A program made the translations under genes and the position numbers. From the UHGV virus genome UHGV-1796775: DNA of 12,658 nucleotides. One strand, 5' to 3'. Every line of letters starts with the position of its first letter. Position 1 is the stretch's first letter. This document shows positions 1 to 12,658 of this stretch, piece by piece. Below the pieces are notes generated by a model. That model worked only from the letters and a program-made list of their open reading frames with translations, ran no database searches and was not told the origin of the DNA. This stretch comes from a virus.

Positions 1-50
1 ATCGATACTGGAAAAAACTCTAACTCGGTGGCCAGTTTTTGTTGACCACT

Positions 51-1457
51 TCAGTATGCATAGCGAACGGCTGAGAGAACGTCGTCGTTAAGCTTGACGA
101 TCTTCCCGTTTTCATCACGGTGATAGAGGCGGAACTCCTCAAAGAATGGCTCACAGGTGTTGAATACTTTGAAGCGACCATCGAGCATCATGTCGCGCAA
201 TTCAGTGATGCCAGGCTCAACAGCATTACCGCCATCAGGCCATGTCGCATGCTCCTGTAACATCATAAAACCAGCATCTGCATACTGCCCTTTGAGCTGC
301 TCACCGCCGCCCTTCTCGTGCTGGTTTCCGTCATGAGGCCATGCGGTTGGCACTTTATGCGCCCATGATTTAACAGCTCCCCACGCCTGAACGGCTGTTT
401 TTTCTTTCGCCTTCCACACGCGTGAAACGTAGATTGTGTCTGCGTCCTTATCCCACCAAAGCTGAACCTGCGCCTGTGGGTGATCCCATCCGAAATCCAT
501 CCCGCCAATTACGTAGAAGTGATCAGGACACTCGAACGGCTGACACTTAATCGTCTCTTCCGGTATCTGGAAGATTCGACCACTACCCATCGTAGGAATG
601 CCGCGAGCACGCGCCTCTCTCTCATGCTCGGGATAGGATGCGATGATTTGCTCTTTCTGCTCGTCGGTGTAGTGCTCTGCGTCATAGATGGTCATGTTGA
701 CCACTTTCTGCGACTTGCTGGGATTCTTCAGGAACTTGGTAACAACGTCAGACATCCCCATCAGCGGGGTAAACGTCAGAATTGAGAATTGCCCGTATTT
801 GTTGGTACGGGTAAGACCTTCGCCATAAATGCTGTATGGTGGCTCTTCGTCAAACCACACGCCGTGGATTGTGTCACCCTGCCAGCGAGCACGGCCTTGC
901 GAGTATGGCTTGAAGTAGCAGATTGAAATGCCATCTTCAACGCCATCAGCCGTGTGATGCTTAACCAGAAGATGATCAACAAGGTTCGGAAAGAAAGGAG
1001 ACTTCTTCCAGCTAATGATGTCTTCTTTCGGTATGGAACCGTAGCCAGGCTCATCATTCTCTTCGATACGACCGCACAGGATGCGTTGAGTCGTTTTGGT
1101 TACAGTCTCGTTTGTCTCGCCACCAATCCAGAAGACAACAGGCTCATAGAAACGCTTACCTTTCCACTCACCGCCATATTTACCATCAGCAGGATAGCCT
1201 TTTGTGCCCGGGTAACGCCCTGTAAGGTGAAACGCGACTTCAGCAGCACCAGTAAATGACTTACCAAGCTGGTTACCAGCCATAAAACATCGCTCTGGAT
1301 AGTCATGTCCGGCGTCGATGAACTCACGCTGTTTGCTGTATGGCGTAAATTCATATAGCAGGTGTGTGTTCCGGTAGTTCTCTTCTTCTTCGAGTAGCTC
1401 GAGCAATTCGATTTGCTCTTCGTCGCTCAGGTTATCAAGAATCGCGTCCAGTTCCAC
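51..1457 (-). CDS. terL: Terminase large subunit (P22/Sf6-like), 468 aa
   Basis: Long minus-strand ORF. GTG start at 1457, with AAGGAG about 10 nt upstream, overlaps the terS 3' end by 23 nt. Placement directly after terS fits a packaging module; family assignment is by recollection only. Stop at 51-53. Confidence 0.85.
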
Positions 1458-1923
1458 GGTTGAATAGCTCCTTGATACGAGAGCGTCGCTTATCGCGATC
1501 TCCCTTATCAGGTGTCACGTCTTCAACTTGCGACTGCTCTTTGAGGCCCAAATCACGGGCGATGATGTTAGCGTTGAGAAGGTCAGCGGCTGCGCCAGAG
1601 AATTTCTGGTCGTAGATGATGTCTTCCGCTCGTGATGTGACGTCAGAAAAACCTTCCATTGACCGGAAGGTTCCCCATGTTTGCCTGGTGATATCAAGGA
1701 AGGTACACAATCCTGAAATAGTCATGGCTCGCATCTTAGGGACATTAGCCTTAATTATTTCTCCCTGATATGAAAATACCTTACCCTCCCATAGCGGGTT
1801 ATCATCAGCCCACTCGAAGTATTCACAACAAGCAGCCCACAGCGCCTCAGGCGATTCGAATTTAGGATTTCGCCCATGACTACTGCGGGCCTCCCAAAAT
1901 CGGTTGCCCTTTGGTGCTGCCAT
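1435..1923 (-). CDS. terS: Terminase small subunit (P22 gp3-like), 162 aa
   Basis: ORF track 1435..1929; I prefer the ATG at 1923 ([17 protein letters not shown]...), which has better spacing from a GTGAG Shine-Dalgarno than the ATG at 1929. The N-terminal sequence is characteristic of P22-type small terminases from memory. Confidence 0.8.
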
Positions 1924-1958
1924 ATTCATCTCACTTATTTGTTATTTCAGGTTGAGCA

Positions 1959-2201
1959 TCATGCTCCGGTAGTGAACAGGTCTAACGCTTCCTTCGATTT
2001 ACGCACCGCTTCGATAGTTCGGGTCGTGATATCTGAATTAGCGCCGCCTGACTGGAAGTGAATTTTGAATAGCTCAAGCTTCAGCTCGTCAGTGCCAATG
2101 AACTGAAATGCCTCCTCTGCGGCTGCGTTCTGGTTCATGACCAGTTTGTAAATCTCTAACTGGAATTTCTGTTCTTCAGTCATGGGAATAATCTCTGCCA
2201 T
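1959..2201 (-). CDS. Hypothetical protein, 80 aa
   Basis: Minus-strand ORF with ATG at 2201 and an alternative ATG at 2183. No convincing RBS for the first ATG. It sits between the lysis and packaging modules; no recognisable motif. Confidence 0.5.
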   Translation of the reverse strand: MAEIIPMTEEQKFQLEIYKLVMNQNAAAEEAFQFIGTDELKLELFKIHFQSGGANSDITTRTIEAVRKSKEALDLFTTGA

Positions 2202-2304
2202 TGTTGGCTACATTTATCCGTTAAAAGGGATATCAGTTAAGTTATCCCGTGTAGGGTATAAGCCATTATCAAAGCCACTCTGTAGGGAATGGCTTTTGTA
2301 ATAA

Positions 2305-2685
2305 CTACTGTTCGCTTAGCTTCTGCTTCAGCAAGTAACCTTCTAGCATCCAGATTTTGTTTACAGCATTTTGCCGGGCAATCTTCCGACCAATTTCTGC
2401 ATCAAAATTTTCCGGACTTGCACAGGCACTCTCTCCGGTGACGGTGAAGCCATTCTTCAGCACCAGTACGCAGAAAGTGAGCAACTTCAATGGCGATAAA
2501 TCACGATCGCCTTCTTCTGGTTTTTCTCTGCCACAATATTCGTTGCTGGAAATGGCACCATTACGTCCATCATAAGCAGTAAAGTAATGCTCGCTTTTAA
2601 TCACGTCTTCGATGTGCTGCGGGGTGATTCGCGGTGCCGTTTTTCCTTTCTCAACGATTTCTTTTTCGATTTGCTGGTCGTTCAT
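2305..2685 (-). CDS. Hypothetical phage protein, 126 aa
   Basis: Minus-strand ORF with ATG at 2685 and an AGGGT Shine-Dalgarno about 8 nt upstream. Its stop codon is immediately followed by a conserved hairpin element. Function unknown. Confidence 0.6.
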   Translation of the reverse strand: MNDQQIEKEIVEKGKTAPRITPQHIEDVIKSEHYFTAYDGRNGAISSNEYCGREKPEEGDRDLSPLKLLTFCVLVLKNGFTVTGESACASPENFDAEIGRKIARQNAVNKIWMLEGYLLKQKLSEQ

Positions 2686-2911
2686 AATTATGACCCTGTG
2701 GAGTGGTTGCTTGATTAGGATGTCTTTCCATCAGTCCGCCACCACAAAGAATCTTTTTTGCCATAAGGCAGGAGGTTCATCTTTCAGTGGCTGCCAGTGT
2801 TATTTCCCCACTTACTGGCTTGGGTTGTTTCGTGGTACTGCCGTTAACTGGTTACCCAGAATAAATTCCGGTTTCATTATCAAGCCCACCCGTAGATAGG
2901 CTTTGTAATGG

Positions 2912-3199
2912 CTACTTCTTCAGAAATGATTCGATGAACTCACGCCGGGGATGACGATAGTTCAGAATATCTTCTGGCATCCTCATAAAGCGGTTGTTGC
3001 CGTCTTTGGCAGTAACAAAACAGCTGTGAACTCCGCAGACATCCGTTTTGATTGTGTCGCTATACTCAAAAAGCAACTGAGCCATCTTCTCTTGCCATTC
3101 TGGCGGCATAGCCTCCATGAATACTCGCGGCATCACGCAGAACGGCGCATGCGTAAGACCAAACCACAGTTGCAGGTCTTTACGATATTCTTCATCCAT
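2912..3199 (-). CDS. Hypothetical protein, 95 aa
   Basis: Minus-strand ORF with ATG at 3199 and an AAGGT Shine-Dalgarno about 7 nt upstream. It is preceded by an intrinsic-terminator-like hairpin and followed by a conserved hairpin element. No recognisable motif. Confidence 0.55.
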   Translation of the reverse strand: MDEEYRKDLQLWFGLTHAPFCVMPRVFMEAMPPEWQEKMAQLLFEYSDTIKTDVCGVHSCFVTAKDGNNRFMRMPEDILNYRHPRREFIESFLKK

Positions 3200-3217
3200 C
3201 GTCTTTACCTTTGTTGC

Positions 3218-3242
3218 AATAAAAATCCCCGCAAATGCGAGG
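3218..3242 (-). terminator. Intrinsic terminator-like hairpin downstream of Rz
   Basis: Minus-strand RNA CCUCGC-AUUU-GCGGGG followed by AUUUUUAUU: a 6-bp GC-rich stem, 4-nt loop and U-tract, lying 19 nt upstream of the 95-aa ORF start. Confidence 0.5.
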
Positions 3243-3417
3243 CTAAATCCTGGTATTTGTAATGACTGGCTCTTATCTCAACGCAGCCCCTTACCGCGCG
3301 CCAGATGCTCAATATCAAGCATCAGCAATGAGATGTTTAATCTGGATTCACTCCAGAAGTGATCACCACCCTGTCTACAGAGCCAGATGTGAAGGATGAT
3401 GAGTAAAATTATCGCTA

Positions 3418-3855
3418 TCATCGAAGGCATTGCGTCCTGATGTATTCCTGCAGGTAGTTAACCTGCGCGGTTATCCTGTCGATTCCACTTCGGAGACGGT
3501 AATAATTGAGTTCAGCATCTGCTGTAAGTCCTGGACTTTCTCCATCGCCCATGCCGCTGGCTCCGGTCGTTGACTTTGCACAGGTGGCGGCGACTTGCAG
3601 GCGCTTACGCCCAGCAGAAACATCAGCACGGAGACTTTCGATAGTCGCGTTAGCATCAGCAAGCTCCTTTGTATATCTGGCGTCGAGTTCTGCTACATCA
3701 CGTTGACGCTTCTGCATGTCAGCGATTGTGGATGTGGCCTTATCGCGCTGCTCTTTGTAGGCGATGGCGTTATCACGGTAATGATTAACCGCCCATGACA
3801 GACAGACGATGATGCAGATAACCAGAGCGGAGATAATCGCGGTGACTCTGCTCAT
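3418..3855 (-). CDS. Rz: Rz i-spanin (inner-membrane spanin subunit), 145 aa
   Basis: ATG at 3855 overlaps the R stop (ATGA). N-terminal TM segment [23 protein letters not shown] matches lambda Rz from memory; the rest is homologous but diverged. Rz1 is embedded in the +1 frame. Confidence 0.85.
3471..3656 (-). CDS. Rz1: Rz1 o-spanin (outer-membrane lipoprotein), 61 aa
   Basis: Embedded inside Rz in another frame. ATG at 3656 with AAGGAG 7 nt upstream (the ORF track's 3662 start is a TTG). Signal peptide with lipobox VSAC followed by a proline-rich stretch, as expected for Rz1. Confidence 0.75.
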
Positions 3856-4328
3856 ACCTCAATCTCTCTGACCGTTCCACCCGCTTCTTTGAATTTTGCA
3901 ATCAGGCTGTCAGCCTTATGCTCGAACTGACCATAACCAGCGCCAGGCAGTGAAGCCCAGATATTGCTGCAACGGTCGATAGCCTGACGAATATCACCGC
4001 GATCAATCATCGGCAAAGCGCCACGCTCCTTAATCTGCTGCAATGCAACAGCATCCTGGCTTTTAGGAGAGAAGTCTTTCAGGCCAAGCTGCTTACGATA
4101 GGCATCCCACCAACGGGAAAGAAGCTGGTAACGCCCGGCGGCTGTTGATTTGAGTTTTGGGTTTAGCGTGACAAGTTTGCGAGGGTGATCAGAGTAATCA
4201 GTGAATAGCTCTCCGCCTACAATGACGTCATAACCATGATTTCTGGTTTTCTGTCGTCCGTTATCAGTCCCCTCTGACCACGCCAGCATATCGAGGAACG
4301 CCTTACGTTGATTATTGATTTCCACCAT
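3852..4328 (-). CDS. R: Endolysin R (lambda-type lytic transglycosylase), 158 aa
   Basis: Translation [39 protein letters not shown]... matches lambda R from memory nearly residue for residue. Start overlaps the S 3' end. Confidence 0.93.
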
Positions 4329-4635
4329 CTTCTACTCCGGCTTTTTTAGCAGCGAAGCGTTTGATAAGCGAACCAATCGAGTCAGTACCGATGTAGCCGA
4401 TGAACACGCTCGTTATATAAGCGAGATTGCTACTTAGTCCGGCGAAGTCGAGAAGATCACGAATGAACCAGGCGATAATGGCGCACATCGTTGCGTCGAT
4501 TACTGTTTTTGTAAACGCACCGCCATTATATCTGCCGCGAAGGTACGCCATTGCAAACGCAAGGATTGCCCCGATGCCTTGTTCCTTTGCCGCAAGAATG
4601 GCGGCTAACAGGTCATGTTTTTCTGGCATCTTCAT
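4312..4635 (-). CDS. S: Holin S (class I; dual-start holin/antiholin), 107 aa
   Basis: Translation [39 protein letters not shown]... is essentially lambda S. The Met1-Lys2-Met3 dual start (ATG at 4635 and 4629) gives S107 antiholin and S105 holin. Confidence 0.93.
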
Positions 4636-5041
4636 GTCTTACCCCCAATAAGGGGATTTGCTCTATTTAATTAGGAATAAGGTCGATTACTGATCGAACA
4701 AATCCAGGCTACTGTGTTTAGTAATCAGATTTGTTCGTGACCGATATGCACGGGCAAAACGGCAGGAGGTTGTTAGCGCAGCCTCTTGCCATCCGCTTTC
4801 ACGAAGGTCATGTGTAGAAGGCCGCAGCGTAACTATTACTAATGAATTCAGAACAGACAGTGGCTACGGCTCAGTTTGGGTTGTGCTGTTGCTGGGCGGC
4901 GATGACGCCTGTACGCATTTGGTGATCCGGTTCTGCTTCCGGTATTCGCTTAATTCAGCACAACGGAAAGAGCACTGGCTAACCAGGCTCGCCGACTCTT
5001 CACGATTATCGACTCAATGCTCTTACCTGTTGTGCAGATAT

Positions 5042-5098
5042 AAAAAATCCCGAAACCGTTATGCAGGCTCTAACTATTACCTGCGAACTGTTTCGGGA
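5042..5098 (-). terminator. tR' late terminator
   Basis: Long hairpin with arms at 5048-5056 and 5090-5098 (UCCCGAAAC / GUUUCGGGA) followed on the minus-strand RNA by a U6 tract (plus-strand A-run 5042-5047). Confidence 0.7.
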
Positions 5099-5233
5099 TT
5101 GCATTTTGCAGACCTCTCTGCCTGCGATGGTTGGAGTTCCAGACGATACGTCGAAGTGACCAACTAGGCGGAATCGGTAGTAAGCGCCGCCTCTTTTCAT
5201 CTCACTACCACAACGAGCGAATTAACCCATCGT
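5042..5233 (-). ncRNA. Lambda-type 6S late leader RNA (pR' transcript terminated at tR')
   Basis: Minus-strand sequence from ACGATGGGTTAATTCGCTCG... to ...GCATAACGGTTTCGGGATTTTTTAT matches the lambda pR'-tR' transcript as I remember it. End coordinates are approximate. Confidence 0.7.
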
Positions 5234-5240
5234 TGAGTCA

Positions 5241-5269
5241 AATTTACCCAATTTTATTCAATAAGTCAA
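5241..5269 (-). promoter_or_regulatory. Late promoter pR' with overlapping Q-utilisation (qut) region
   Basis: On the minus strand, TTGACT (-35, plus 5264-5269), a 17-bp spacer, then TAAATT (-10, plus 5241-5246). The arrangement matches lambda pR' from memory; it lies just downstream of Q. Confidence 0.7.
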
Positions 5270-5311
5270 TATCATGCCGTTAATATGTTGCCATCCGTGG
5301 CAATCATGCTG

Positions 5312-5935
5312 CTAACGTGTGACCGCATTCAAAATGTTGTCTGCGATTGACTCTTCTTTGTGGCATTGCACCACCAGAGCGTCATACAGCGGCTTAACAG
5401 TGCGTGACCAGGTGGGTTGGGTAAGGTTTGGGATTAGCATCGTCACAGCGCGATATGCTGCGCTTGCTGGCATCCTTGAATAGCCGACGCCTTTGCATCT
5501 TCCGCACTCTTTCTCGACAACTCTCCCCCACAGCTCTGTTTTGGCAATATCAACCGCACGGCCTGTACCGTGGCAATCTCTGCATCTTGCCCCCGGCGTC
5601 GCGGCACTACGGCAATAATCCGCATAAGCGAATGTTGCGAGCACTTGCAGTACCTTTGCCTTAGTATTTCCTTCAAGCTTTGCCACACCACGGTATTTCC
5701 CCGATACCTTGTGTGCAAATTGCATCAGATAGTTGATAGCCTTTTGTTTGTCGTTCTGGCTGAGTTCGTGCTTACCGCAGAATGCAGCCATACCGAATCC
5801 GGCTTGTGATTGCGCCATCCCCATAGCAGCCATCACATCAGTACCGGAAAGAGAGTCAGAAGCCGTGGCCCGTGGTGAGTCGCTCATCATCGGGCTTTTT
5901 GGCGAATGAAATTTAGCTACGCTTTCGAGTCTCAT
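5312..5935 (-). CDS. Q: Late-gene antiterminator Q (lambda-type), 207 aa
   Basis: Translation [27 protein letters not shown]...[12 protein letters not shown]...CGRCKGVGY is lambda Q with its zinc-binding Cys cluster. ATG at 5935 overlaps the NinI stop (ATGA). Confidence 0.93.
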
Positions 5936-6597
5936 GCGCCTTCTCCCTGTACCTGAATCAATGTGAGGTTTCCGCAGAACACTGCGCCGGTATCGATATA
6001 CATCTGGTTGGCAAACTTGAGTGGTTTCACTGCTGGCGTATGACCAAAGATGAACGTGTCCGCGCCTTTGATTTCTTTCACGATCCCGTCTTGTGAGTTG
6101 CTGATTCGTTCGCGGTTCCAGATTACCTGCTGATGATCAACTGGCTTTCCAAACTCGTATTCGTCACAAGGATAATCGGCGTGGCAGATGACATATTTTT
6201 TTCCTTTACTCACCAGTTCGATGATTAACGGAAGTTCATCTGCTTTATGGGCAAGAGCTTTAGCCAGAATTTCTTTGTCGTAATCGAGATTAAAGAACCA
6301 GCCACCGCCATTAAGCAGCCAGTGATTGACGTTTCCACGCTCTGATAAGCCATCAATCATCATTTGCTCATGGTTTCCACGTACAGCTCTGAACCAGGGG
6401 AATGTGATTAATTCCAGACATTCGACGTTCTCTGTACCGCGATCAACCAAATCGCCCACCGAGATAAGCAGGTCTTTTTTGGTGTCGAATCCTATCGTCT
6501 CCAGTTTTTTCATCAGGTTCGTGTAGCATCCGTGCAGATCGCCAACTACCCAAATATTTCGGTATTTGCTGCCATCAATTTTTTCGTAATAGCGCAT
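5932..6597 (-). CDS. ninI: NinI serine/threonine protein phosphatase (lambda PPase-like), 221 aa
   Basis: Metallophosphatase motifs GDLHG, GDLVDRG and GNHE. I place the start at the internal ATG (6597, MRYYEKIDG...), as in lambda PPase; the ORF-track N-terminal extension overlaps NinH and is probably not translated. Confidence 0.88.
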
Positions 6598-6781
6598 CTC
6601 TTTCACTCCATCCGCGATGAACCATGAGAACGTCGTTGACGATGGCGTGCATTTTCCCGTCTTTATCATCAACGTATTTTCTGACCGTACCGCGACTACA
6701 TTTCAGTCTGCGTGCTACTTCTGTCTGGTTTCCGTATGCTTCAACGAGCATGTCTGGAATGGTTTTTACTGAGAACGTCAT
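6575..6781 (-). CDS. ninH: NinH (small Fis-like HTH protein), 68 aa
   Basis: 68-aa ORF with ATG at 6781 overlapping the NinG stop (ATGA). Sequence and size match lambda NinH from memory. Confidence 0.8.
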
Positions 6782-7389
6782 GCGGCCTCACTTCTGCTAT
6801 TTCGCAGGTCTTTGAGTTTCTGCTGATACTCCGCCTTGATGGCCCTGCACTCTTCGACAGTCCAGCGATGGCGGTTATGGTTTGATTCGATTTCGTCTAC
6901 TGCTTCCTGCCCGATGCGATTAATCAGTTCGACGCGATACGGAACGAGATTTCCGCTTTTGTGCTGGTTGCACACCACGCATTGCTTGTGAATATTGCGT
7001 TCATCAAATCGGAGTTGAGGTGCCGCAGCAGTTGTCCGGTAATGTCCGGCATCCCACTGAGCAGACGTGAGCGTTCCGCACGAGATACATGGTAAGTCGC
7101 GGTCTCTTTCTCTGATGAAGGCGTTTACGGCTTGTTGGGCTTGTTTAATCCAGTAACTGCGGGGCTTTAAGGCGAGTTTTCGAATCTTAAGTTTATCTTT
7201 CTGTCTCTGATCCTCTCGTCGTCGTTTCTTCTCTGCTGCTTTTTCCGCTTTTTCGCGTTCTTTACTTCGTCGTTCGAGTGCTATCTTGGTTCCACACTCT
7301 GGAGAGCACCACCACTGATTAGCGAATGCAGGGTGAAACCATTCCCGACATTCATCGTTTTTACATCGTCTTCGCGCTGGTTTAGCCAT
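6778..7389 (-). CDS. ninG: NinG / Rap recombination-associated endonuclease, 203 aa
   Basis: Cys-rich N- and C-terminal clusters ([23 protein letters not shown]) separated by a basic stretch, typical of NinG/Rap. ATG at 7389. Confidence 0.85.
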
Positions 7390-7552
7390 CGTCTTCTTCC
7401 TCGTACATTGAGCTATTCGGATCGCTCATCAGTTCTGCGCAGCAGTGCTCACACACGTGAACTTCCAGCACATGCAGCTTCTGGCCGCAGTTAGCGCACG
7501 TTAAAGCCCGCTCGACGCTTCCTTGTTCGTAACTTCGATTTTGGTCAATCAC
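7382..7552 (-). CDS. ninF: NinF-like small zinc-finger protein, 56 aa
   Basis: Not in the ORF track. Hand translation from a GTG at 7552 (GTGA overlap with the NinE stop; GAGGA upstream) gives [56 protein letters not shown]. Its stop overlaps the NinG start. Confidence 0.6.
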
Positions 7553-7731
7553 CTTGTTTTCCTCGCACGTTCTCTAAGCCACCGGATATCCCACAGGTGA
7601 GCCGTGTAGTTGAAGGTTTTTACGTCAGATTCTTTTGGGATTGGCTTGCGTTTATTTCTGGAGCGTTTCGTTGGAAGGTATTTGCAGTTTTCACAGATTA
7701 TGTCGGTGATGCTTCGTCGCTGTCGTCTCAT
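7549..7731 (-). CDS. ninE: NinE, 60 aa
   Basis: Internal ATG at 7731 ([23 protein letters not shown]...) overlaps the methyltransferase stop (ATGA). The ORF-track 90-aa version is an upstream extension into that gene. Confidence 0.75.
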
Positions 7732-8255
7732 GCCGCCCTCCTGACGCCCTGCCCGATCGCCATCAATGCCGCTTTGGATACGGTAGTAAACATCCGTCGA
7801 GGACTGATGAACGGTCGCCAAATCAGCAGCATGGAGCCTTTGCTGTTTCCCTTCTTCTCCAGCCCTGTCGATGGTTCGATAAAATTAATCCGTCCATCAG
7901 TGATAATACGAACTTCGTCAACACTCTCCAGAGCCTTGCTGAACCATCCGACAGACATATCCTCTGGCACAAGCATCACTACCGTCTGTCGTTGTTGTAT
8001 GCACTGCTCAGCGGCTTTTTCCACCCACGGCCTGATATTGCTGTACGGTGGGTTATTCCAGATTGCACCGTGGCTTATCCACTCAGAATTTAGCGCGTCG
8101 TCGGCCTCAGTTAGCCAGTGAGCGCACAGAGCATTTTTGTCGCTCGCTGCCGAATCCAGCCAGAATCCAAACTCAATATCCAGTGCATCAAAAAGCCAAA
8201 GCGGCGTTTGCCAGCAGTCCTTGTCGTGTGCTGGCGTATTTGATTTGATAGTCAT
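7728..8255 (-). CDS. Phage Dam-type DNA N6-adenine methyltransferase, 175 aa
   Basis: Catalytic NPPY motif ([10 protein letters not shown]) and the typical N-terminal [13 protein letters not shown] block of the phage Dam family. Preferred start is the ATG at 8255 (ATGA overlap with the NinB stop, GGAAGG Shine-Dalgarno); an alternative ATG at 8282 would add 9 residues. Confidence 0.8.
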
Positions 8256-8698
8256 GCAGCCTTCCCTTTTCGTTGTGACCATTCATACTCTCGCCGGGAG
8301 TCATCACTCCACCGCACGTTGCGCTCTGAGCCGAACCAGAACATGATTTCGATAAGCTCAGTCATGCTGGCCTTTCGCATTTTGCTGGTACGCACTCCAA
8401 GCATAACAACGCCACCGTCGATACCAGGCGCACTTCGTTGCTCCAGTTTTTTGGTCTTAAGCCACAGAGCAGTGAACAGATCTTTCCAGTCCTCCGGCGC
8501 AAGTCTCTGTCCATGCCAAAGCACCTGACGCGAAACATCGTTCAGCATCGGCCACATACGGTCATTCTGCGCTTTGCTCCGCTTGGGTTCTTTAATGTGG
8601 ACTTCGTGAGGTGACTTGTCGTCGATGGGAAGTGAGAGTATTGCGTCTATGGCGTTGTTTCTGATTGCTTCGTTGCGAAGCATGTATATTTGCTTCAT
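8252..8698 (-). CDS. ninB: NinB (Orf-family recombination mediator), 148 aa
   Basis: Homologous to lambda NinB from memory (e.g. LNDVSRQVLWHG, RNVRWSDD). ATG at 8698 with GAGGT upstream. Confidence 0.85.
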   Translation of the reverse strand: MKQIYMLRNEAIRNNAIDAILSLPIDDKSPHEVHIKEPKRSKAQNDRMWPMLNDVSRQVLWHGQRLAPEDWKDLFTALWLKTKKLEQRSAPGIDGGVVMLGVRTSKMRKASMTELIEIMFWFGSERNVRWSDDSRREYEWSQRKGKAA

Positions 8699-8720
8699 CG
8701 TTACCTCGACTTAATTCTGC

Positions 8721-9047
8721 TCATTGATACCCTCTCTCACTTAATCGCCTCCACGCTTCGTTAAACTCCTCTCTGGTTGCGCCGGATTTTCTTTCTTCAA
8801 ACATCATGCATTCGCTGATGTCTCCCCATGACTTTGGTCGCTTTTCAGCGAACAGATCATCCCATTCGAATACCCAGCGGCCTGATTTTCGGTAGTGGTA
8901 AATGGTCAGCCATGTTGTGCTGTTCGCTGGATACCCATAGAGAACTTCGACTTTTTGATCACGGTCTTTATGCTTTTTCAGCAGGATAAAGCCAGCAACC
9001 AGTGAAGCTCCGGCAAGAATGATGATTGGAATTTGCCAGTCAGCCAC
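8721..9047 (-). CDS. Hypothetical membrane-anchored protein, 108 aa
   Basis: GTG start at 9047 with a strong GGAGGG Shine-Dalgarno 4 nt upstream. One N-terminal TM helix (IPIIILAGASLVAGFILL) followed by a basic stretch and a charged, Trp-rich soluble domain. No family recognised. Confidence 0.55.
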   Translation of the reverse strand: MADWQIPIIILAGASLVAGFILLKKHKDRDQKVEVLYGYPANSTTWLTIYHYRKSGRWVFEWDDLFAEKRPKSWGDISECMMFEERKSGATREEFNEAWRRLSERGYQ

Positions 9048-9059
9048 ACTTCCCTCCGC

Positions 9060-9266
9060 TTAACTCACAAAACTCCACGCCATTTTTGCTACGACAACAG
9101 GCATAACACCGATAATCACCCACAGGAGAATGCTACCGAAAAGCACACCCACCATGTCTTTACCTTCGCCTACCAACCGGACAAAACTGCTGGCAACCAC
9201 AATGAACGTCGCCACCATCCACATAGCACCGAGAATCCTCAATGCAGAGAAAATTAACTCAACCAC
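9060..9266 (-). CDS. Hypothetical small integral membrane protein, 68 aa (two predicted TM helices)
   Basis: GTG start at 9266 with GGGGGAGAG upstream. Two hydrophobic segments separated by a GEGKD turn. Its stop abuts the RBS of the next ORF. No family recognised. Confidence 0.5.
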   Translation of the reverse strand: MVELIFSALRILGAMWMVATFIVVASSFVRLVGEGKDMVGVLFGSILLWVIIGVMPVVVAKMAWSFVS

Positions 9267-9280
9267 GATTTACTCTCCCC

Positions 9281-9313
9281 CAAATAAAAAGGCCTGCGAT
9301 TACCAGCAGGCCT
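9281..9313 (-). terminator. Intrinsic terminator downstream of the helicase gene (tR2-like position)
   Basis: Perfect 8-bp GC-rich inverted repeat AGGCCTGC / GCAGGCCT (plus 9290-9297 and 9306-9313) with an 8-nt loop, followed on the minus-strand RNA by UUUUUAUUU. Confidence 0.7.
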
Positions 9314-9341
9314 GCTATCAGCTCAGTGATGTAGATGGTCA

Positions 9342-10778
9342 TCAGAATCCTCCTTTCTTCTTGGACTGCGGTTCCTCGCGTTCACGGCGGCGCATTTCAG
9401 CAGACTGTTGGTCTGTGTCATAAATAGCGCCATTTGCCTGAATGCAATACACCGTGCCGGTATTGCCATGACGATTGAGACGAAGGATTAGTTCAGTTTC
9501 ACCAGGTGGAACACTGTCATCAAAAGCGCCTTCACGATGGATCCCCACCCAATAATCGCAATCCTGTTCAATCTGCCCTGTATCTCGTGAGTCACTTGGT
9601 AATGGGCGTTTATTGGTTCGGCTTTCCAGTGCGCGGTTAAGCTGCGTCAGAAGCACAACAACGCAATCAAGCTCTTTGGCAAGGTTCTTCAGTCCTTTGG
9701 TGATCATGCCGTAGGCAAGGTCGTTGCGATCGGCCTTCTCAGCGGTCATTAGTGTCAGGTAATCGACCAGAATCATGCCAACACATCCTTTTTCTCGCTT
9801 GATTCGACGGCTTTCGCTGACGATTTGAGCCAGAGATAATCCCGGCGTGTCGTCGATGTAAAGCAGGTCGATTTCACTCAAGCGATTGGCTGTTTCGATC
9901 GCCCTGTTGAAGTCACCATCGTAATCACCCTGATAGCCGTCATCAGCGTCATTTGTCGCCGGAAGGTAAAAAATATTCGGGTTAACACCTGACTTCTGTC
10001 CTACCAGTTTTTCCAGTATCTGGTCACCGGGCATTTCAAGGCTGAACATCAGAGCAGGCTTTTTCTCATGCACTGCGCAGTTGATTGCCATCTGGCTGTA
10101 TAGTGTCGTTTTCCCCATCTTAGGGCGAGCGCCAATGACAAACAGAGAGCCTTTCACCAGACCTTTCGGTGACAGCATCCTGTCCAGCGATGGGATCCCT
10201 GTGCTCATTCCTCGCTGTTCGCCTGACGGGTCAAATCGCTTCTCAAGGTCGCTAACCCAGTCTTCCATGACCTCACCAAATGAGCGAAGGCCGCGACGCG
10301 ATCCGGTTTTTGCATGGTCTGTCAGTTGCGTGAAAATCGCCTGAATAGCTTCGTACTTCTGCGTTGCAGTCATTCCGTTGCGGGAATAGAGCAATTCCGT
10401 CGCTTCAGTCATGCGGTTGATGGCGTAGCGTTCCATTGCGGTTTCACGAACCTGCATTGCATAGGCAACGATGTTTGCGGCGCTTGGCGTGTTCTTTGCG
10501 ATCTCAGCGATATAAGCAAAACCGCCAACAGACGCCGTTAACGATTTACGCTCCAGTTCATCGAAAAGCGTCAGGCCATCTACTGGCTTTTGCTCCCGGT
10601 GCATTCTGGTTATTTCTTCGAAAAGGATTTTGTGTGGTCGGCTGTAAAATGAATCAGGCTTCAGCATCGCCAGAACTTTCTGGACGCGCTCACTGCTGTC
10701 ATCATCCAGAAGCAATCCACCAATCACCGCCTGCTCTGCCTCGATGCTATGGGGCGGCGCATAAAAATTATCGGTCAT
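9342..10778 (-). CDS. DnaB-family replicative DNA helicase, 478 aa
   Basis: Walker A GARPKMGKTT and conserved DnaB C-terminal domain blocks (LVDYLTLM, TGQIEQDCDY). ATG at 10778 with GAGGGTGA upstream (the ORF-track start at 10793 is a GTG). Overlaps the initiator gene end by 11 nt. Confidence 0.9.
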   Translation of the reverse strand: MTDNFYAPPHSIEAEQAVIGGLLLDDDSSERVQKVLAMLKPDSFYSRPHKILFEEITRMHREQKPVDGLTLFDELERKSLTASVGGFAYIAEIAKNTPSAANIVAYAMQVRETAMERYAINRMTEATELLYSRNGMTATQKYEAIQAIFTQLTDHAKTGSRRGLRSFGEVMEDWVSDLEKRFDPSGEQRGMSTGIPSLDRMLSPKGLVKGSLFVIGARPKMGKTTLYSQMAINCAVHEKKPALMFSLEMPGDQILEKLVGQKSGVNPNIFYLPATNDADDGYQGDYDGDFNRAIETANRLSEIDLLYIDDTPGLSLAQIVSESRRIKREKGCVGMILVDYLTLMTAEKADRNDLAYGMITKGLKNLAKELDCVVVLLTQLNRALESRTNKRPLPSDSRDTGQIEQDCDYWVGIHREGAFDDSVPPGETELILRLNRHGNTGTVYCIQANGAIYDTDQQSAEMRRREREEPQSKKKGGF

Positions 10779-11667
10779 CGTGTTCACCCTCACGAACTTT
10801 CAGGTAGGTATTGTCGTTAAGCAGGAAATCAAATCCCTTTTTGTGCCAGACAGTTCCGCGTTGATGGTTTGGACGCTCTTCGAACATCCATCGGCAATTT
10901 TCGCCTACGTAGCTCAAATAATTTCTCCAGTCCTGCATCGTGAACCCATGCCCGTCAAGCTGGCGGGTTATCACTCCGGCTTTGCGCCAGAACGTTCGGA
11001 TCTGGTTTTTACGCTTGTCATTCAGTGCGCGGATTCTTGGCGCTTCAGGAAGGATTTCGTGGTAAGCATCGACAACATCCTGACAGCTGACGGAAGGTTT
11101 TTTCTTGTCAGACTTTTTGTCTGCTGTGGCACTCTCTAATACGTCAGTATTAGAGATAATATTATTATATTCTTTATCTGTGGTAATTTGCTGGTAATCT
11201 GCTGGTACAGCATTGCTTACAGGCATTGGTATTGCTGGCTTTGAGGTGGTAATTTGCTGGTAATCTGCTGGTACAAAATTTGACTGATAATCGTCATATT
11301 TCTCTACCGAGAAAACTGAGAATTTACCGTGTGAAACCCAGTCAATCATGCCGAGTTTTTTGAACTTTCTAAGCAGGTACTGAACGCGATCTGGTTTGAG
11401 TCCTGTTTCAAACGCCAGAGAGTTTCTACCGCCAAGTAGCTTCCCTCTGCCTACCAGAATTTCTCCTGCGTCAGTCATTACATACTCAGGCGTATGCTTT
11501 GCTTTGAGGATTAAGTGAACCCACAGATGCGCAGCTTCTGCGTCCTTGTAAAACGGCACATCCATAATTTTACGGTGCAGCAAGGCATACCCCTTACCGC
11601 TGCTTTGATGCGGTTGTTGTAGCCTTCTGGCCTCTCTGGCTTCGGCTAGATTAGATATGTTACTCAT
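10768..11667 (-). CDS. Replication initiator (lambda O-like / P22 gp18-like), 299 aa, containing the origin
   Basis: ATG at 11667 with AAGGAG upstream. Iteron repeats and an AT-rich tract lie inside the coding sequence, giving the repeated peptide [10 protein letters not shown]. Followed directly by the helicase gene, as in lambdoid replication modules. Confidence 0.85.
11134..11178. promoter_or_regulatory. Origin AT-rich unwinding region with a 22-bp perfect palindrome
   Basis: CTCTAATAC-GTCA-GTATTAGAG (11134-11155; 9-bp perfect arms) followed by AT-rich ATAATATTATTATATTCTTTATC, immediately adjacent to the iterons. Confidence 0.6.
11180..11275. repeat. Origin iterons (ori) inside the initiator gene
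   Basis: Two exact 28-bp copies of GGTAATTTGCTGGTAATCTGCTGGTACA at 11182-11209 and 11248-11275, each made of two ~12-bp units GGTAAT(T/C)TGCTG. A degenerate unit sits between them (GGTATTGCTGG, about 11229-11239). Confidence 0.8.
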
Positions 11668-11806
11668 GACCTTTCTCCTTCTGCATCAGCTTCACCTTTT
11701 CCAACTCAGCCCGGAATCGACCAGGCTGCTTGAAGCTGGACAGGAAGCGATCACGTAGTATGTGTTTGTGAATTTTGTCCTGGTAAGGACTGAGTTGTTT
11801 TGTCAT
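11660..11806 (-). CDS. Small hypothetical protein, 48 aa, between cII and the initiator
   Basis: Not in the ORF track. ATG at 11806 with AGGAG 5 nt upstream; translation [48 protein letters not shown]. Its TAA stop overlaps the initiator ATG. The start context GGAGTCATTATGACAAA is the one I recall for lambda O. Confidence 0.5.
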
Positions 11807-11818
11807 AATGACTCCTGT

Positions 11819-11895
11819 GGATTGATCCAGTAATGACCTCAGAACTCCATCTGGATTTGATCAGAACGCTCGGTTGCCGCCGGGCGTTTTTTATT
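11819..11895 (+). ncRNA. oop: oop antisense RNA (lambda-type), overlapping the cII 3' end
   Basis: Plus-strand GATTGATCCAGTAATGACCTCAGAACTCCATCTGGATTTGATCAGAACGCTCGGTTGCCGCCGGGCGTTTTTTATT matches lambda oop from memory. Terminator hairpin CGCTCGG/CCGGGCG at 11867-11886 plus a T6 tract; CATAAT -10 at 11804-11809. The 5' end is approximate. Confidence 0.7.
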
Positions 11896-12132
11896 GGTGA
11901 GAATCGAAGCAACTTGTCGTGCCAATCGAGCCATATCGTCGTCAACGACGCCCCATTCAAGAACAGCAAGCAGCATTGAGAACTTTGGAATCCAGTCCCT
12001 CTTCCACCTGCTGATCTGCGACTTATCAACTCCCACAGCTTCCGCTGTCTTCTCAGTTCCAAGCATTGCGATTTTGTTAAGCAACGCACTCTCGATTCGT
12101 AGAGCCTCGTTGCGTTTGTTTGCACGAACCAT
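11839..12132 (-). CDS. cII: Transcriptional activator CII (lambda-type), 97 aa
   Basis: Internal ATG at 12132 gives [66 protein letters not shown]..., lambda CII nearly residue for residue. The ORF-track N-terminal extension runs into nutR and is not translated. Confidence 0.93.
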
Positions 12133-12201
12133 ATGTAAGTATTTCCTTAGATAACAATTGATTGAATGTATGCAAATAAATGCATACACCATAGGTGTGG
12201 T

Positions 12202-12232
12202 TTAATTTGATGCCCTTTTTCAGGGCTGGGAT
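12202..12232 (-). promoter_or_regulatory. nutR N-utilisation site (boxA + boxB)
   Basis: On the minus strand, boxA-like GCTCTTAC (plus 12224-12232) and boxB hairpin GCCCTGAAAAAGGGC (plus 12202-12216), between cro and cII exactly as in lambda. This implies an N antiterminator encoded outside the window. Confidence 0.75.
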
Positions 12233-12251
12233 GTGTAAGAGCTGGAATGTC

Positions 12252-12467
12252 TTAAGCGGCTTTGTGTTCCGGCGGGAACACGTCATCAAGACTGACTTTT
12301 GCGCCTAACTTGTTTAGGCACTCAACAAGAGCACGGCATGTTTTAAGGTCTGGGAAGCGACGACCAGATTCCCAATGTCCGATAGCTCCCTGTGTGCATC
12401 CAACTGCCTTAGCAAGTGTTGTTTGAGAGATATTCAGTGACTCTCGATATTTTCGTAGGTTGCTCAT
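12252..12467 (-). CDS. cro: Cro-like HTH repressor (XRE family), 71 aa
   Basis: ATG at 12467 with GGAGGG 3 nt upstream gives MSNLRKYRESLNISQTTLAKAVGCTQGAIGHWESGRR..., a helix-turn-helix protein. Not lambda Cro. The ORF-track upstream extension covers the operator region. Confidence 0.8.
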   Translation of the reverse strand: MSNLRKYRESLNISQTTLAKAVGCTQGAIGHWESGRRFPDLKTCRALVECLNKLGAKVSLDDVFPPEHKAA

Positions 12468-12493
12468 ATGCCCTCCATAGTAACCATGAAACA

Positions 12494-12522
12494 ATAATAC
12501 GATATGTACTTTTAGAATGCAA
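12494..12522 (-). promoter_or_regulatory. Candidate PR promoter for cro
   Basis: On the minus strand, TTGCAT (-35, plus 12517-12522), a 17-bp spacer, then TATTAT (-10, plus 12494-12499), about 25 nt upstream of the cro ATG. Lies in the AT-rich divergent intergenic region 12468-12578. Confidence 0.5.
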
Positions 12523-12578
12523 ACAAAAAATACATCTTGTGCATGGATGGTTTTAGTACAGAGCGTAATAATAAGGGT

Positions 12579-12658
12579 ATGAAAATGAAATGGTATGAAC
12601 TGGCTAGATCCAGAATGAAAGAGCTCGGCATAACTCAAGAGAAGTTAGCCGAAGAGCT
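12579..12658 (+). CDS. CI-like repressor, N-terminal fragment (truncated by the window edge)
   Basis: ATG at 12579 gives MKMKWYELARSRMKELGITQEKLAEEL, the start of an HTH (XRE-type) domain, divergent from cro. Only 26 codons are visible. Confidence 0.6.
   Translation, partial: MKMKWYELARSRMKELGITQEKLAEE

Follow-up and report, generated by a model that had tools for sequence, protein, structure and literature searches.

Lambda-like blocks and their boundaries in a P22-like lambdoid prophage from a metagenome scaffold

Introduction

How does a prophage come to carry DNA almost identical to that of phage lambda directly beside modules of unrelated sequence, and why does the one give way to the other where it does? 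The virus genome UHGV-1796775 raises this question in a stretch of 12,658 nucleotides (nt), here called the window, which is the terminal part (nt 1-12658) of a 67,059 base pair (bp) metagenome scaffold (ENA ERZ28590147 scaffold_43). An earlier inspection of this DNA made from its letters alone, the sequence-only reading, had described tracts near-identical to lambda alternating with clearly different modules, and had ascribed them to modular exchange at defined boundaries. Comparison with lambda and other lambdoid phages and prophages bears out the alternation, since blocks 95-100% identical to lambda lie between DNA without lambda homology, and the block structure, the sharpness of the joints and the clustering of homology endpoints at gene edges support exchange at defined boundaries. 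We consider it very probable that the window is a lambdoid mosaic with old, inherited joints, which have been reused by homologous exchange in conserved patches combined with selection.

Modular mosaicism in lambdoid phages, and the specific positions of its boundaries, are already known; a comparison of P22 with phage L, for example, counted at least 25 alternations of similar and unrelated sequence (PMC8022706). Two models of mosaic formation and the idea of boundary sequences have been set out in the literature (Susskind & Botstein 1978; Clark et al. 2001; Hendrix; PMC3233612), and the joints described here can be weighed against both.

Lambda homology is confined to three sharply bounded blocks

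Comparison of the whole window with lambda (NC_001416) by BLASTN gave three blocks only, with ~4.5 kb of the 12.6 kb aligned (Table 1); uniform moderate identity to lambda was not seen. No lambda DNA homology was found by BLASTN in cro/cI, DUF2740-O-helicase, dam-ninB, the two small open reading frames (ORFs) next to ninB, distal Rz/Rz1, the accessory genes or the terminase. From the side of lambda, the genes without DNA homology in the window are cro/cI, O/P, ren, ninB, ninC, ninD, distal Rz/Rz1 and those for packaging, whereas the segments shared with lambda and HK630 stand at 97.8% (nutR-cII-oop, and likewise ninE to the Rz 5′ end), 99.9% (Q-pR′-orf64) and 95.8% (tR2 cassette). Within the shared blocks lambda gene coordinates transfer exactly to the ORFs of the window, and identity to lambda is 96.5% in ninF, 98.0% in ninG, 99.5% in ninH and 97.3% in ninI. 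The statement that nutR-cII-oop and Q-pR′-6S-tR′-S-R match lambda almost base for base thus holds for Q-pR′-tR′ and roughly for nutR-cII-oop and S, and less so for R. Similarly, Cro/CI, the initiator, the DnaB-type helicase and the P22-type terminase had rightly been called non-lambda, but the nin region is only ~46% so (7725-9266), with ninE-ninI (54%) being lambda-like.

The edges of the blocks are abrupt. Lambda identity in the last 30-nt bin inside the block is 0.93 at 12245/12246, 0.93 at 11800/11799 and 0.97 at 7724/7725, and in the adjacent bin outside it 0.33, 0.23 and 0.33, respectively, giving a switch no wider than 10 nt at the three joints that we number J1, J2 and J4 and an outside flank at chance level (23-37%). 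The three joints that had been placed from the letters alone (between cro and boxA, at ~11800 and inside Rz at ~3765) proved right to within ~20 nt, although that list was incomplete, lacking the fourth sharp joint at 7724/7725 and the island at 9273-9343.

In phage order (12658 to 1) the window holds the cI 5′ end, OR/pR, cro, nutR, cII, a DUF2740 ORF, an O-like initiator and a DnaB-type helicase; then a terminator cassette, two small ORFs, ninB, dam, ninE, ninF, ninG, ninH and ninI; and finally Q, pR′, orf64, S, R, Rz/Rz1, four accessory ORFs and a P22-type small then large terminase gene, all on the minus strand except the cI 5′ end, which is on the plus strand. P22-type packaging genes thus lie downstream of a lambdoid early-right and lysis region, as in Lederbergvirus, and there is no homology collinear with Lambdavirus lambda through immunity, replication, nin, lysis and cos/packaging, the terminase being P22-type. 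In all likelihood the genome is an ordinary lambdoid mosaic, a P22-like (Lederbergvirus-type) prophage of which the window covers the early-right, lysis and packaging end.

Table 1. Features of the 12,658-nt window (strand relative to the window as read; empty cells, none assigned)
Feature	Position	Strand	Remarks
IS911 (IS3 family) terminal inverted-repeat end	1-53		reverse complement reads TGAAGTGGTCAACAAAAACTGGCC...
P22-type terminase module	54-1929	minus	88-90% nt identity to P22 genes 3 and 2; 97.4% to IME10
TerL	54-1457	minus	PF03237, PF17289
TerS	1435-1929	minus	PF16677 GP3_package
Accessory-gene slot	1930-3430	minus	four ORFs; no lambda homology
DUF2560	1959-2201	minus	accessory ORF
gp49/Sf6-gene-66 family gene	2305-2685	minus	accessory ORF
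orf95	2912-3199	minus	95 aa; no Pfam match; phrog_3527, positions 139-230 of 233 only
orf50	3278-3430	minus	accessory ORF
Distal two-thirds of Rz	3418-3745	minus	PF03245/PF06085; 94-100% to P22, at most ~65-70% to lambda
Rz1, embedded in Rz	3471-3656	minus	PF03245/PF06085
BLASTN block 1	3607-7724	minus	lambda 46235-42097; 96.6%
J5	3745-3821	minus	~75-bp conserved patch in Rz 5′ part (MAFFT alignment)
Lambda-like block	3746-7724	minus	ninE through Rz 5′ end; ungapped, 86 mismatches in 3979 nt, 97.8%
R	3852-4328	minus	95.2% to lambda
S	4312-4635	minus	98.5% to lambda
Near-perfect lambda tract	4853-5964	minus	1 mismatch in 1112 nt; ninI 3′ end, Q, pR′, 6S/tR′ region, orf64
orf64	5006-5200	minus	lambda-type
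pR′	5269-5241	minus	pR′-like hexamers
Q	5312-5935	minus	99.8% to lambda
ninE	7549-7731	minus	95.5% to lambda
J4	7725-7746	minus	dam stop/ninE start, overlapping ATGA
Non-lambda left half of nin region	7728-9272	minus	no lambda match (BLASTN)
Dam methyltransferase	7728-8255	minus	PF05869/PF05772 matches in dam-ninB
NinB, non-lambda allele	8252-8698	minus	PF05869/PF05772 matches in dam-ninB
orf108	8721-9047	minus	phrog_5903/phrog_1165 matches in left half of nin region
orf68	9060-9266	minus	phrog_5903/phrog_1165 matches in left half of nin region
J3 (BLASTN block 2)	9273-9343	minus	71-bp intergenic island; 95.8% to lambda 40566-40636 (aligned as 40636-40566), 92.9% to P22 ninA/tR2 region
tR2-like intrinsic terminator hairpin	9313-9290	minus	predicted
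Non-lambda replication module	9342-11806	minus	HK620/HK022/HK630/Stx-phage type, 96-99%
DnaB-type helicase	9342-10778	minus	domain match
O-like initiator	10768-11667	minus	299 aa; phrog_345 (replication initiation O-like)
ori iterons	11180-11280	minus	inside initiator gene
DUF2740 small ORF	11660-11806	minus	48 aa; aligned with lambda O start
J2	11799-11831	minus	33-bp patch CATTACTGGATCAATCCACAGGAGTCATTATGACAAA; ribosome-binding site (RBS) and ATG of first replication-module gene
Lambda-like block (BLASTN block 3)	11799-12245	minus	nutR, tR1 region, cII, oop; lambda 38693-38247; 97.8%, 10 mismatches in 447 nt
cII	11839-12132	minus	PF05269
oop terminator	11863-11890	plus	strongest terminator-like hairpin in window; wider J2 patch ends at its T-run
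nutR boxB hairpin	12227-12213	minus	GCCCTGAAAAAGGGC
nutR boxA	12243-12236	minus	reads AGCTCTTA
J1	12246-12254	minus	cro stop codon and following 6 nt
Non-lambda immunity module	12252-12658		cro, OR/pR, cI 5′ end; HTH_3 match
cro	12252-12467	minus	stop codon 12252-12254 (TAA)
pR-like promoter	12523-12494	minus	predicted
cI 5′ end	from 12543 or 12579, runs off window	plus	ORF

The joints and the modules they separate

The immunity module is 98.8% identical to that of phage 683R2 and ~94.6% to those of E212 and a Stx1 phage, and in the index of the assembly collection its exact 71-aa Cro occurs in 11,874 blocks. At J1 the TAA is the exact end of the cro homology with E212 and the Stx1 phage; homology with lambda sets in 6 nt further on, at 12245, and that with Sf6 and mEp213 reaches 4 and ~13 codons, respectively, into the cro 3′ end. 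Lambda identity being 0.93-1.00 as far as 12245 and 0.33 beyond it, the joint that had been proposed between the cro stop and boxA, at 12233-12252, is correct. We take J1 to be the classical right end of the immunity cassette, directly after cro and before nutR, as in imm434 and imm21 hybrids. In those lambda hybrids cI, operators and cro are likewise exchanged as a unit with a boundary at the position of J1, although they are laboratory hybrids of named parents, whereas the junction in the window is natural and widespread in prophages. On the lambda-like side, boxA reads AGCTCTTA in place of the CGCTCTTA of lambda and Sf6, whereas boxB (GCCCTGAAAAAGGGC) is identical to that of lambda, and a lambda-type N protein, encoded outside the window, is therefore predicted.

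Lambda homology at J2 stops at 11799, 8 nt inside lambda O. In alignment, the 33-bp patch is common to lambda, P22, HK620, HK630, HK022, mEp213, 683R2 and Stx phages, which differ on both of its sides: upstream lies a lambda-type or P22/HK620-type cII, downstream one of at least three types of sequence. Around it a wider conserved patch (11797-11900) extends over oop and is kept even in 933W-like phages, at 80%; we assign the hairpin at 11863-11890 to oop because of its position and the oop promoter and terminator annotated in P22. The joint had been equated with the start of the initiator at ~11800, and its position stands, but the ATG at 11806 opens the DUF2740 ORF and the initiator itself starts at 11667. 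Inside the initiator gene the iterons form two units of 30-35 nt (11180-11214 and 11246-11280) that are 94% identical, with GGTAAT(T/C)TGCT-type sub-repeats and an adjoining AT-rich stretch. Here a further, intragenic joint appears at ~11177, where Sf6, IME10 and 683R2, which have different iterons there, lose homology exactly at the iteron edge. The N-terminal half of O, with the iterons, is of HK620/HK022/Stx type, and the C-terminal part with the helicase is common also to Sf6, IME10 and 683R2; this is consistent with an O N-terminal domain that varies together with its binding sites. The exact 299-aa O is indexed in 795 blocks; in the prophage loci found by look-up its neighbours include at least four Cro types and three cII lengths, indicating that the modules reassort freely.

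J3 is an island of lambda-like DNA whose lambda counterpart runs from the ren stop to just before ninB. It sits between ren and ninB in lambda, between helicase and ninB in P22, and between helicase and orf68 in the window, and homology endpoints in its vicinity cluster at 9270-9273, 9311-9313 and 9339-9343. At J4, lambda homology begins 7 nt inside ninE, and that of P22, HK620, HK630, 683R2 and HK022 ends at 7739-7746; the cluster at 7724-7746 holds 14 endpoints.

J5 lies within a gene. The first ~35 nt of Rz are lambda-type and differ in P22, the next ~75 bp are common to lambda, P22, HK620, Sf6 and others, and the remainder is 94-100% P22-type, so that the switch from lambda-type to P22-type falls inside the common patch; the joint suspected at ~3765 lies within it. 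Lambda identity is at least 0.87 to ~3746 and ~0.6-0.8 to 3607, followed by noise and including a 21-nt lambda-specific insertion. This flank of 0.6-0.8 over ~140 nt, against a background of 0.25-0.4, has no equivalent at J1, J2 or J4. The Rz 5′ patch presumably encodes the N-terminal membrane segment. Taken by their surroundings, J2, J3 and J5 are conserved patches between flanks that differ on both sides, whereas at J1 (nutR) and J4 (ninE 5′ end) sequence is conserved on one side only.

The joints recur in independent isolates

Homology endpoints were collected from 25 loci, comprising 12 reference phages and prophages and 13 prophages found through exact Cro and O look-ups. Because the endpoints are phylogenetically non-independent, the 297 found were merged into 57 clusters for testing, which makes this a rough control only; 22 of the 57 are no more than 10 nt away from a start or stop codon, where 7% would be expected by chance (binomial p = 9e-12). 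Of the clusters 29 are recurrent, and just three of these, at 3740 (Rz), 11900 (cII/oop) and 3453, fall more than 20 nt inside a gene; the intragenic exceptions to the gene-edge rule are Rz 3740 and cII/oop 11900, together with O 11177. Wider searches of the phage collection, in which 60 rows were sampled from each of 304 and 333 matching records, gave the same picture, with endpoints stacked at 11660, 11797, 11831, 11900, 12130, 12245, 12252 and 12263 in the first search and at 3425, 3740-3743 and 3855 in that of the Rz side.

Every joint between lambda and non-lambda DNA is spanned by a single high-scoring segment pair of at least 94% identity in independent isolates: J1 in 683R2 and two prophage loci of NCBI genomes (L017 and L018), J2 in the same two and in E. 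coli EN-1077, J3 in HK620, HK630 and 683R2, J4 in 11 loci and J5 in 12. Since independent isolates carry them intact, the joints are inherited rather than events specific to this element. Three of them already bear names, as the boundary sequences bsq5, bsq6 and bsq7 annotated in the Sf6 RefSeq record map to 11799-11831, 9262-9342 and ~3740-3787, that is, to J2, J3 and J5 (bsq5 is 11185-11217 and bsq7 1685-1732 of our Sf6 locus, L002, and tR2 is annotated inside bsq6). That annotation reportedly comes from Casjens et al. in 2004, and the concept itself is said to originate with the work of Clark et al. in 2001 on HK620.

These spanning matches also bear on whether the mosaic was made by the assembler, which could have stitched reads of several co-resident prophages, or lambda DNA in the case of the 1.1-kb tract described below, at shared repeats. 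In favour of this, the window comes from the end of a metagenome scaffold, and the short sequences at its joints are common to lambdoid phages, the kind of place at which de Bruijn graphs branch. However, each lambda/non-lambda junction occurs within one high-identity segment pair in finished phage genomes or isolate chromosomes, and the EN-1077 prophage is collinear over 84% of the window, and we therefore regard an artefact as extremely improbable.

Origin of the joints

By the account that we favour, the prophage would have combined alleles shared with lambda (nutR-cII-oop, the tR2 intergenic cassette, and ninE to the Rz 5′ end) with those of other lineages (683R2/Stx immunity, HK620/HK022 replication, the dam-ninB half of nin, and P22 distal Rz/Rz1 and terminase) by inheriting old junctions that circulate in the lambdoid gene pool. 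Such joints may arise, and be reused, by homologous recombination, whether 'relaxed' and Rad52-like or RecA-assisted, between co-resident lambdoid genomes, with crossovers falling in short sequences that are conserved for shared functions. Candidate crossover sequences are nutR boxA/boxB, oop with the RBS and ATG of the first replication gene, the tR2 cassette, the overlapping nin starts and the Rz 5′ patch. Selection would then keep those recombinants that hold interacting parts together. The modules kept intact in the window are cI/operators/cro, nutR/cII/oop, the O N-terminal part with its iterons, the O C-terminal part with the helicase, Q with pR′/qut, and distal Rz with Rz1; these are sets of interacting parts. 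Co-transfer of interacting genes, cI and cro among them, was reported by Kupczok et al. (PMC9836094). De Paepe et al. (2014) showed by experiment that lambda gains prophage DNA only where homology exists, in a manner that depends on a Rad52-like recombinase and tolerates diverged substrates (PMC3945230).

We infer both the recombination and the part played by selection from the blocks, the conserved patches at the joints and the clustering of endpoints at gene edges. J2, J3 and J5 fit homology plus selection, with their patches and, at J5, the diverged flank pointing to it; J1 and J4 are conserved on one side only, and their first origin could equally be illegitimate recombination. Several points weigh against homologous exchange as a full explanation. 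J1, J4 and the O side of J2 show no residual lambda similarity outside the block (23-37%), and a crossover with a lambda-like partner is thus not demonstrable from this pair of genomes; a second crossover or another partner would be needed. Flanking homology, defined as a flank at least 10% above background, is retained in 31-35% of natural mosaics, and about two thirds show no trace of it (PMC3945230), which keeps illegitimate recombination with selection viable for some joints. As the events are old and shared, their original parents and mechanism are not reconstructable; the recombination genes of the prophage lie beyond the window; and physical linkage in a metagenome scaffold rests on the assembly.

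The first two of these points are also what the Hendrix model would lead one to see. In that model (PMC3233612) illegitimate recombination strikes at near-random sites, selection alone produces the bias towards gene edges, and the conserved patches are functional without any targeting role; in keeping with it, J1, J4 and the replication side of J2 lack a diverged flank, identity going straight to chance level where a stop or start codon lies. Against it, three of the five lambda joints (J2, J3 and J5) lie in sequences of 33-80 bp common to phages that differ on both sides, and the Rz joint is not at a gene edge but deep within the coding sequence, in a conserved patch. Moreover, crosses of lambda with prophages gave no recombinants without homology (<5e-9, compared with ~2e-6; PMC3945230). 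Illegitimate recombination as the general origin of these joints consequently strikes us as improbable, and homologous reuse of inherited joints as the better account.

The intragenic breakpoints allow a further proposal, namely that overlapping or embedded elements create dually constrained, conserved patches within genes, that these are the preferred crossover sites and set sub-genic boundaries, and that the 1.1-kb tract reflects a very recent exchange. The breakpoint at 11900 (cII 3′ end) coincides with the terminator of the oop antisense RNA, that at 3740 in Rz is just upstream of Rz1, and that at 11177 in O is beside the iterons. We put this forward as a speculative idea and rather doubt it; if true, it would make the conserved patches, in effect, recombination linkers that are maintained.

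A near-perfect lambda tract around Q

Identity within the larger lambda-like block is uneven. The tract at 4853-5964 consists of two perfect runs of 717 and 394 nt, and the longest run in 10,000 simulations with uniform mismatches was 624; as the 717-nt run exceeds this maximum, mismatches are strongly non-uniform in the block. Such patchy identity fits repeated homologous exchange between similar alleles. Among the loci fetched for comparison only lambda and HK630 carry the tract at 99.9%, other natural phages being at 94.8-98.4%. Among complete E. coli genomes, most of its best listed matches are in laboratory strains or K-12 derivatives, apparently lambda lysogens, at 99.9% and with lambda-type ninI and Q annotated, which could point to stray lambda DNA in the scaffold. 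Lambda contamination or a chimeric assembly was nevertheless judged an unlikely source: the tract has one mismatch and continues without a break into 1.1 kb and 1.8 kb of 95-98% lambda-like DNA on its two sides, unlike lambda contamination, the natural isolate HK630 carries the same tract, and the joints are attested elsewhere. The tract could stem from an exchange in nature, within the community sampled, in which a lambda/HK630-like phage and a P22-like prophage took part.

The interval between Q and S (4636-5311) is 99.0% identical to lambda and of lambda type, with pR′ and orf64, and recurrent joints at 4806, 4879-4885 and 5212 bound an exchangeable Q-S segment. Sf6 and the EN-1077 prophage have tRNA-Asn and tRNA-Thr genes in this interval, whereas the window has no tRNA genes; searches of the window with ARAGORN and with Rfam at gathering thresholds gave no matches.

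Closest relatives and significance

Lederbergvirus records give the top overall matches in the phage collection, IME10 with 75% and Sf6 with 58% coverage; no phage record there reaches 80% of the window, three E. coli chromosomes cover 81-84%, and full coverage of the window is reached by no record of either collection, phage or E. coli. The exact combination of modules is thus absent from the collections searched, which is normal for lambdoid prophages. By sequence, the closest overall relatives found are Enterobacteria phage IME10 and the EN-1077 prophage. The match to IME10, 97.6% identical over its 75% of the window, takes in the P22-type terminase, Rz, S, R, Q and ninF-ninI; IME10 differs in its cro/cI, its cII and the presence of ninX. 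The EN-1077 prophage is 97.4% identical over the collinear part and spans J2-J5, but its cro/cI is another, tRNA genes lie upstream of S, and orf95, orf108 and orf68 are missing. HK630, itself a lambda/HK620 mosaic, has a replication module 98.5% identical to that of the window. Sf6 (NC_005344) has the same gene order and the same hybrid lambda/P22 Rz, and is 96-99% identical over ninE-ninI, S-R-Rz, the helicase with the O C-terminal half, and nutR. It differs in a phage-21-type Q with tRNA genes where the window has lambda Q-pR′-orf64, in a P22-type cII, another cro/cI and another O N-terminal half with iterons (joint ~11177), and in its Sf6-type terminase.

The finding matters little beyond annotation, and offers a clean example of lambdoid modular mosaicism. 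On a practical level, its boundaries should help in annotating prophages that have a hybrid Rz, a DUF2740 ORF before the initiator, or lambda-type nutR, cII and Q beside non-lambda immunity. That a P22-like prophage of a natural community, probably defective through an insertion sequence (IS), carries lambda alleles at 98-99.9% fits the view of prophages as a shared reservoir of exchangeable modules.

Other features of the window

In the nin region, P22, IME10, HK630, 683R2 and many prophages show a 34-nt homology break at the ninE/ninF junction (7524-7558), which is due to an inserted ninX-type gene; neither the window nor lambda has this interruption. The window has an intact ninG (6778-7389), whereas that of Sf6 is split by IS911 (Sf6 locus, 4403-6266); the window bridges the insertion site with a 3-bp overlap (7289-7291), which fits a target duplication in Sf6. 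The ninB/orf108 (~8705) and orf108/orf68 (~9050) junctions, which are not lambda joints, are spanned in none of the 25 loci; among E. coli genomes, one matches 89% of 8450-9420 in two pieces, and in others a single piece runs from orf108 to the helicase.

At the left end of the window TerL is cut after codon 468 of 499 by IS911, whose end supplies a TGA stop (51-53), and the prophage is therefore probably packaging-defective. Only 53 nt of IS911 are present in the window and scaffold, setting the left limit of the phage DNA, and P22-type portal, scaffold, coat, tail needle and tailspike genes would lie on the far side of this end; positions 1-55 are 98% identical to 6114-6167 of the Sf6 locus, inside its annotated 'mobile_element IS911', and the scaffold presumably ends here through an assembly break at the repeat. 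The IS911-TerL junction was not found in species-representative genomes (exact-match scan) or in complete E. coli genomes. Three other contigs with the same 468-aa TerL, ending within 1-2 nt of codon 468, had suggested recurrent insertion, which we rejected because they continue as intact TerL (...CATACAT); their shared ends are a selection effect of the exact-product look-up.

Between Rz and the terminase, the accessory slot is bounded and divided by recurrent joints at 1957-1961, 2280, 2719, 2852, 2910, 3220, 3256 and 3425. From its partial match, orf95 looks like the 3′ remnant of a longer gene. In related phages its slot (joints 2852, 2910, 3220 and 3256) holds Rha, KilA-N or GIY-YIG genes, and HF4s alone among phage records spans it, matching 98% of 2700-3500.

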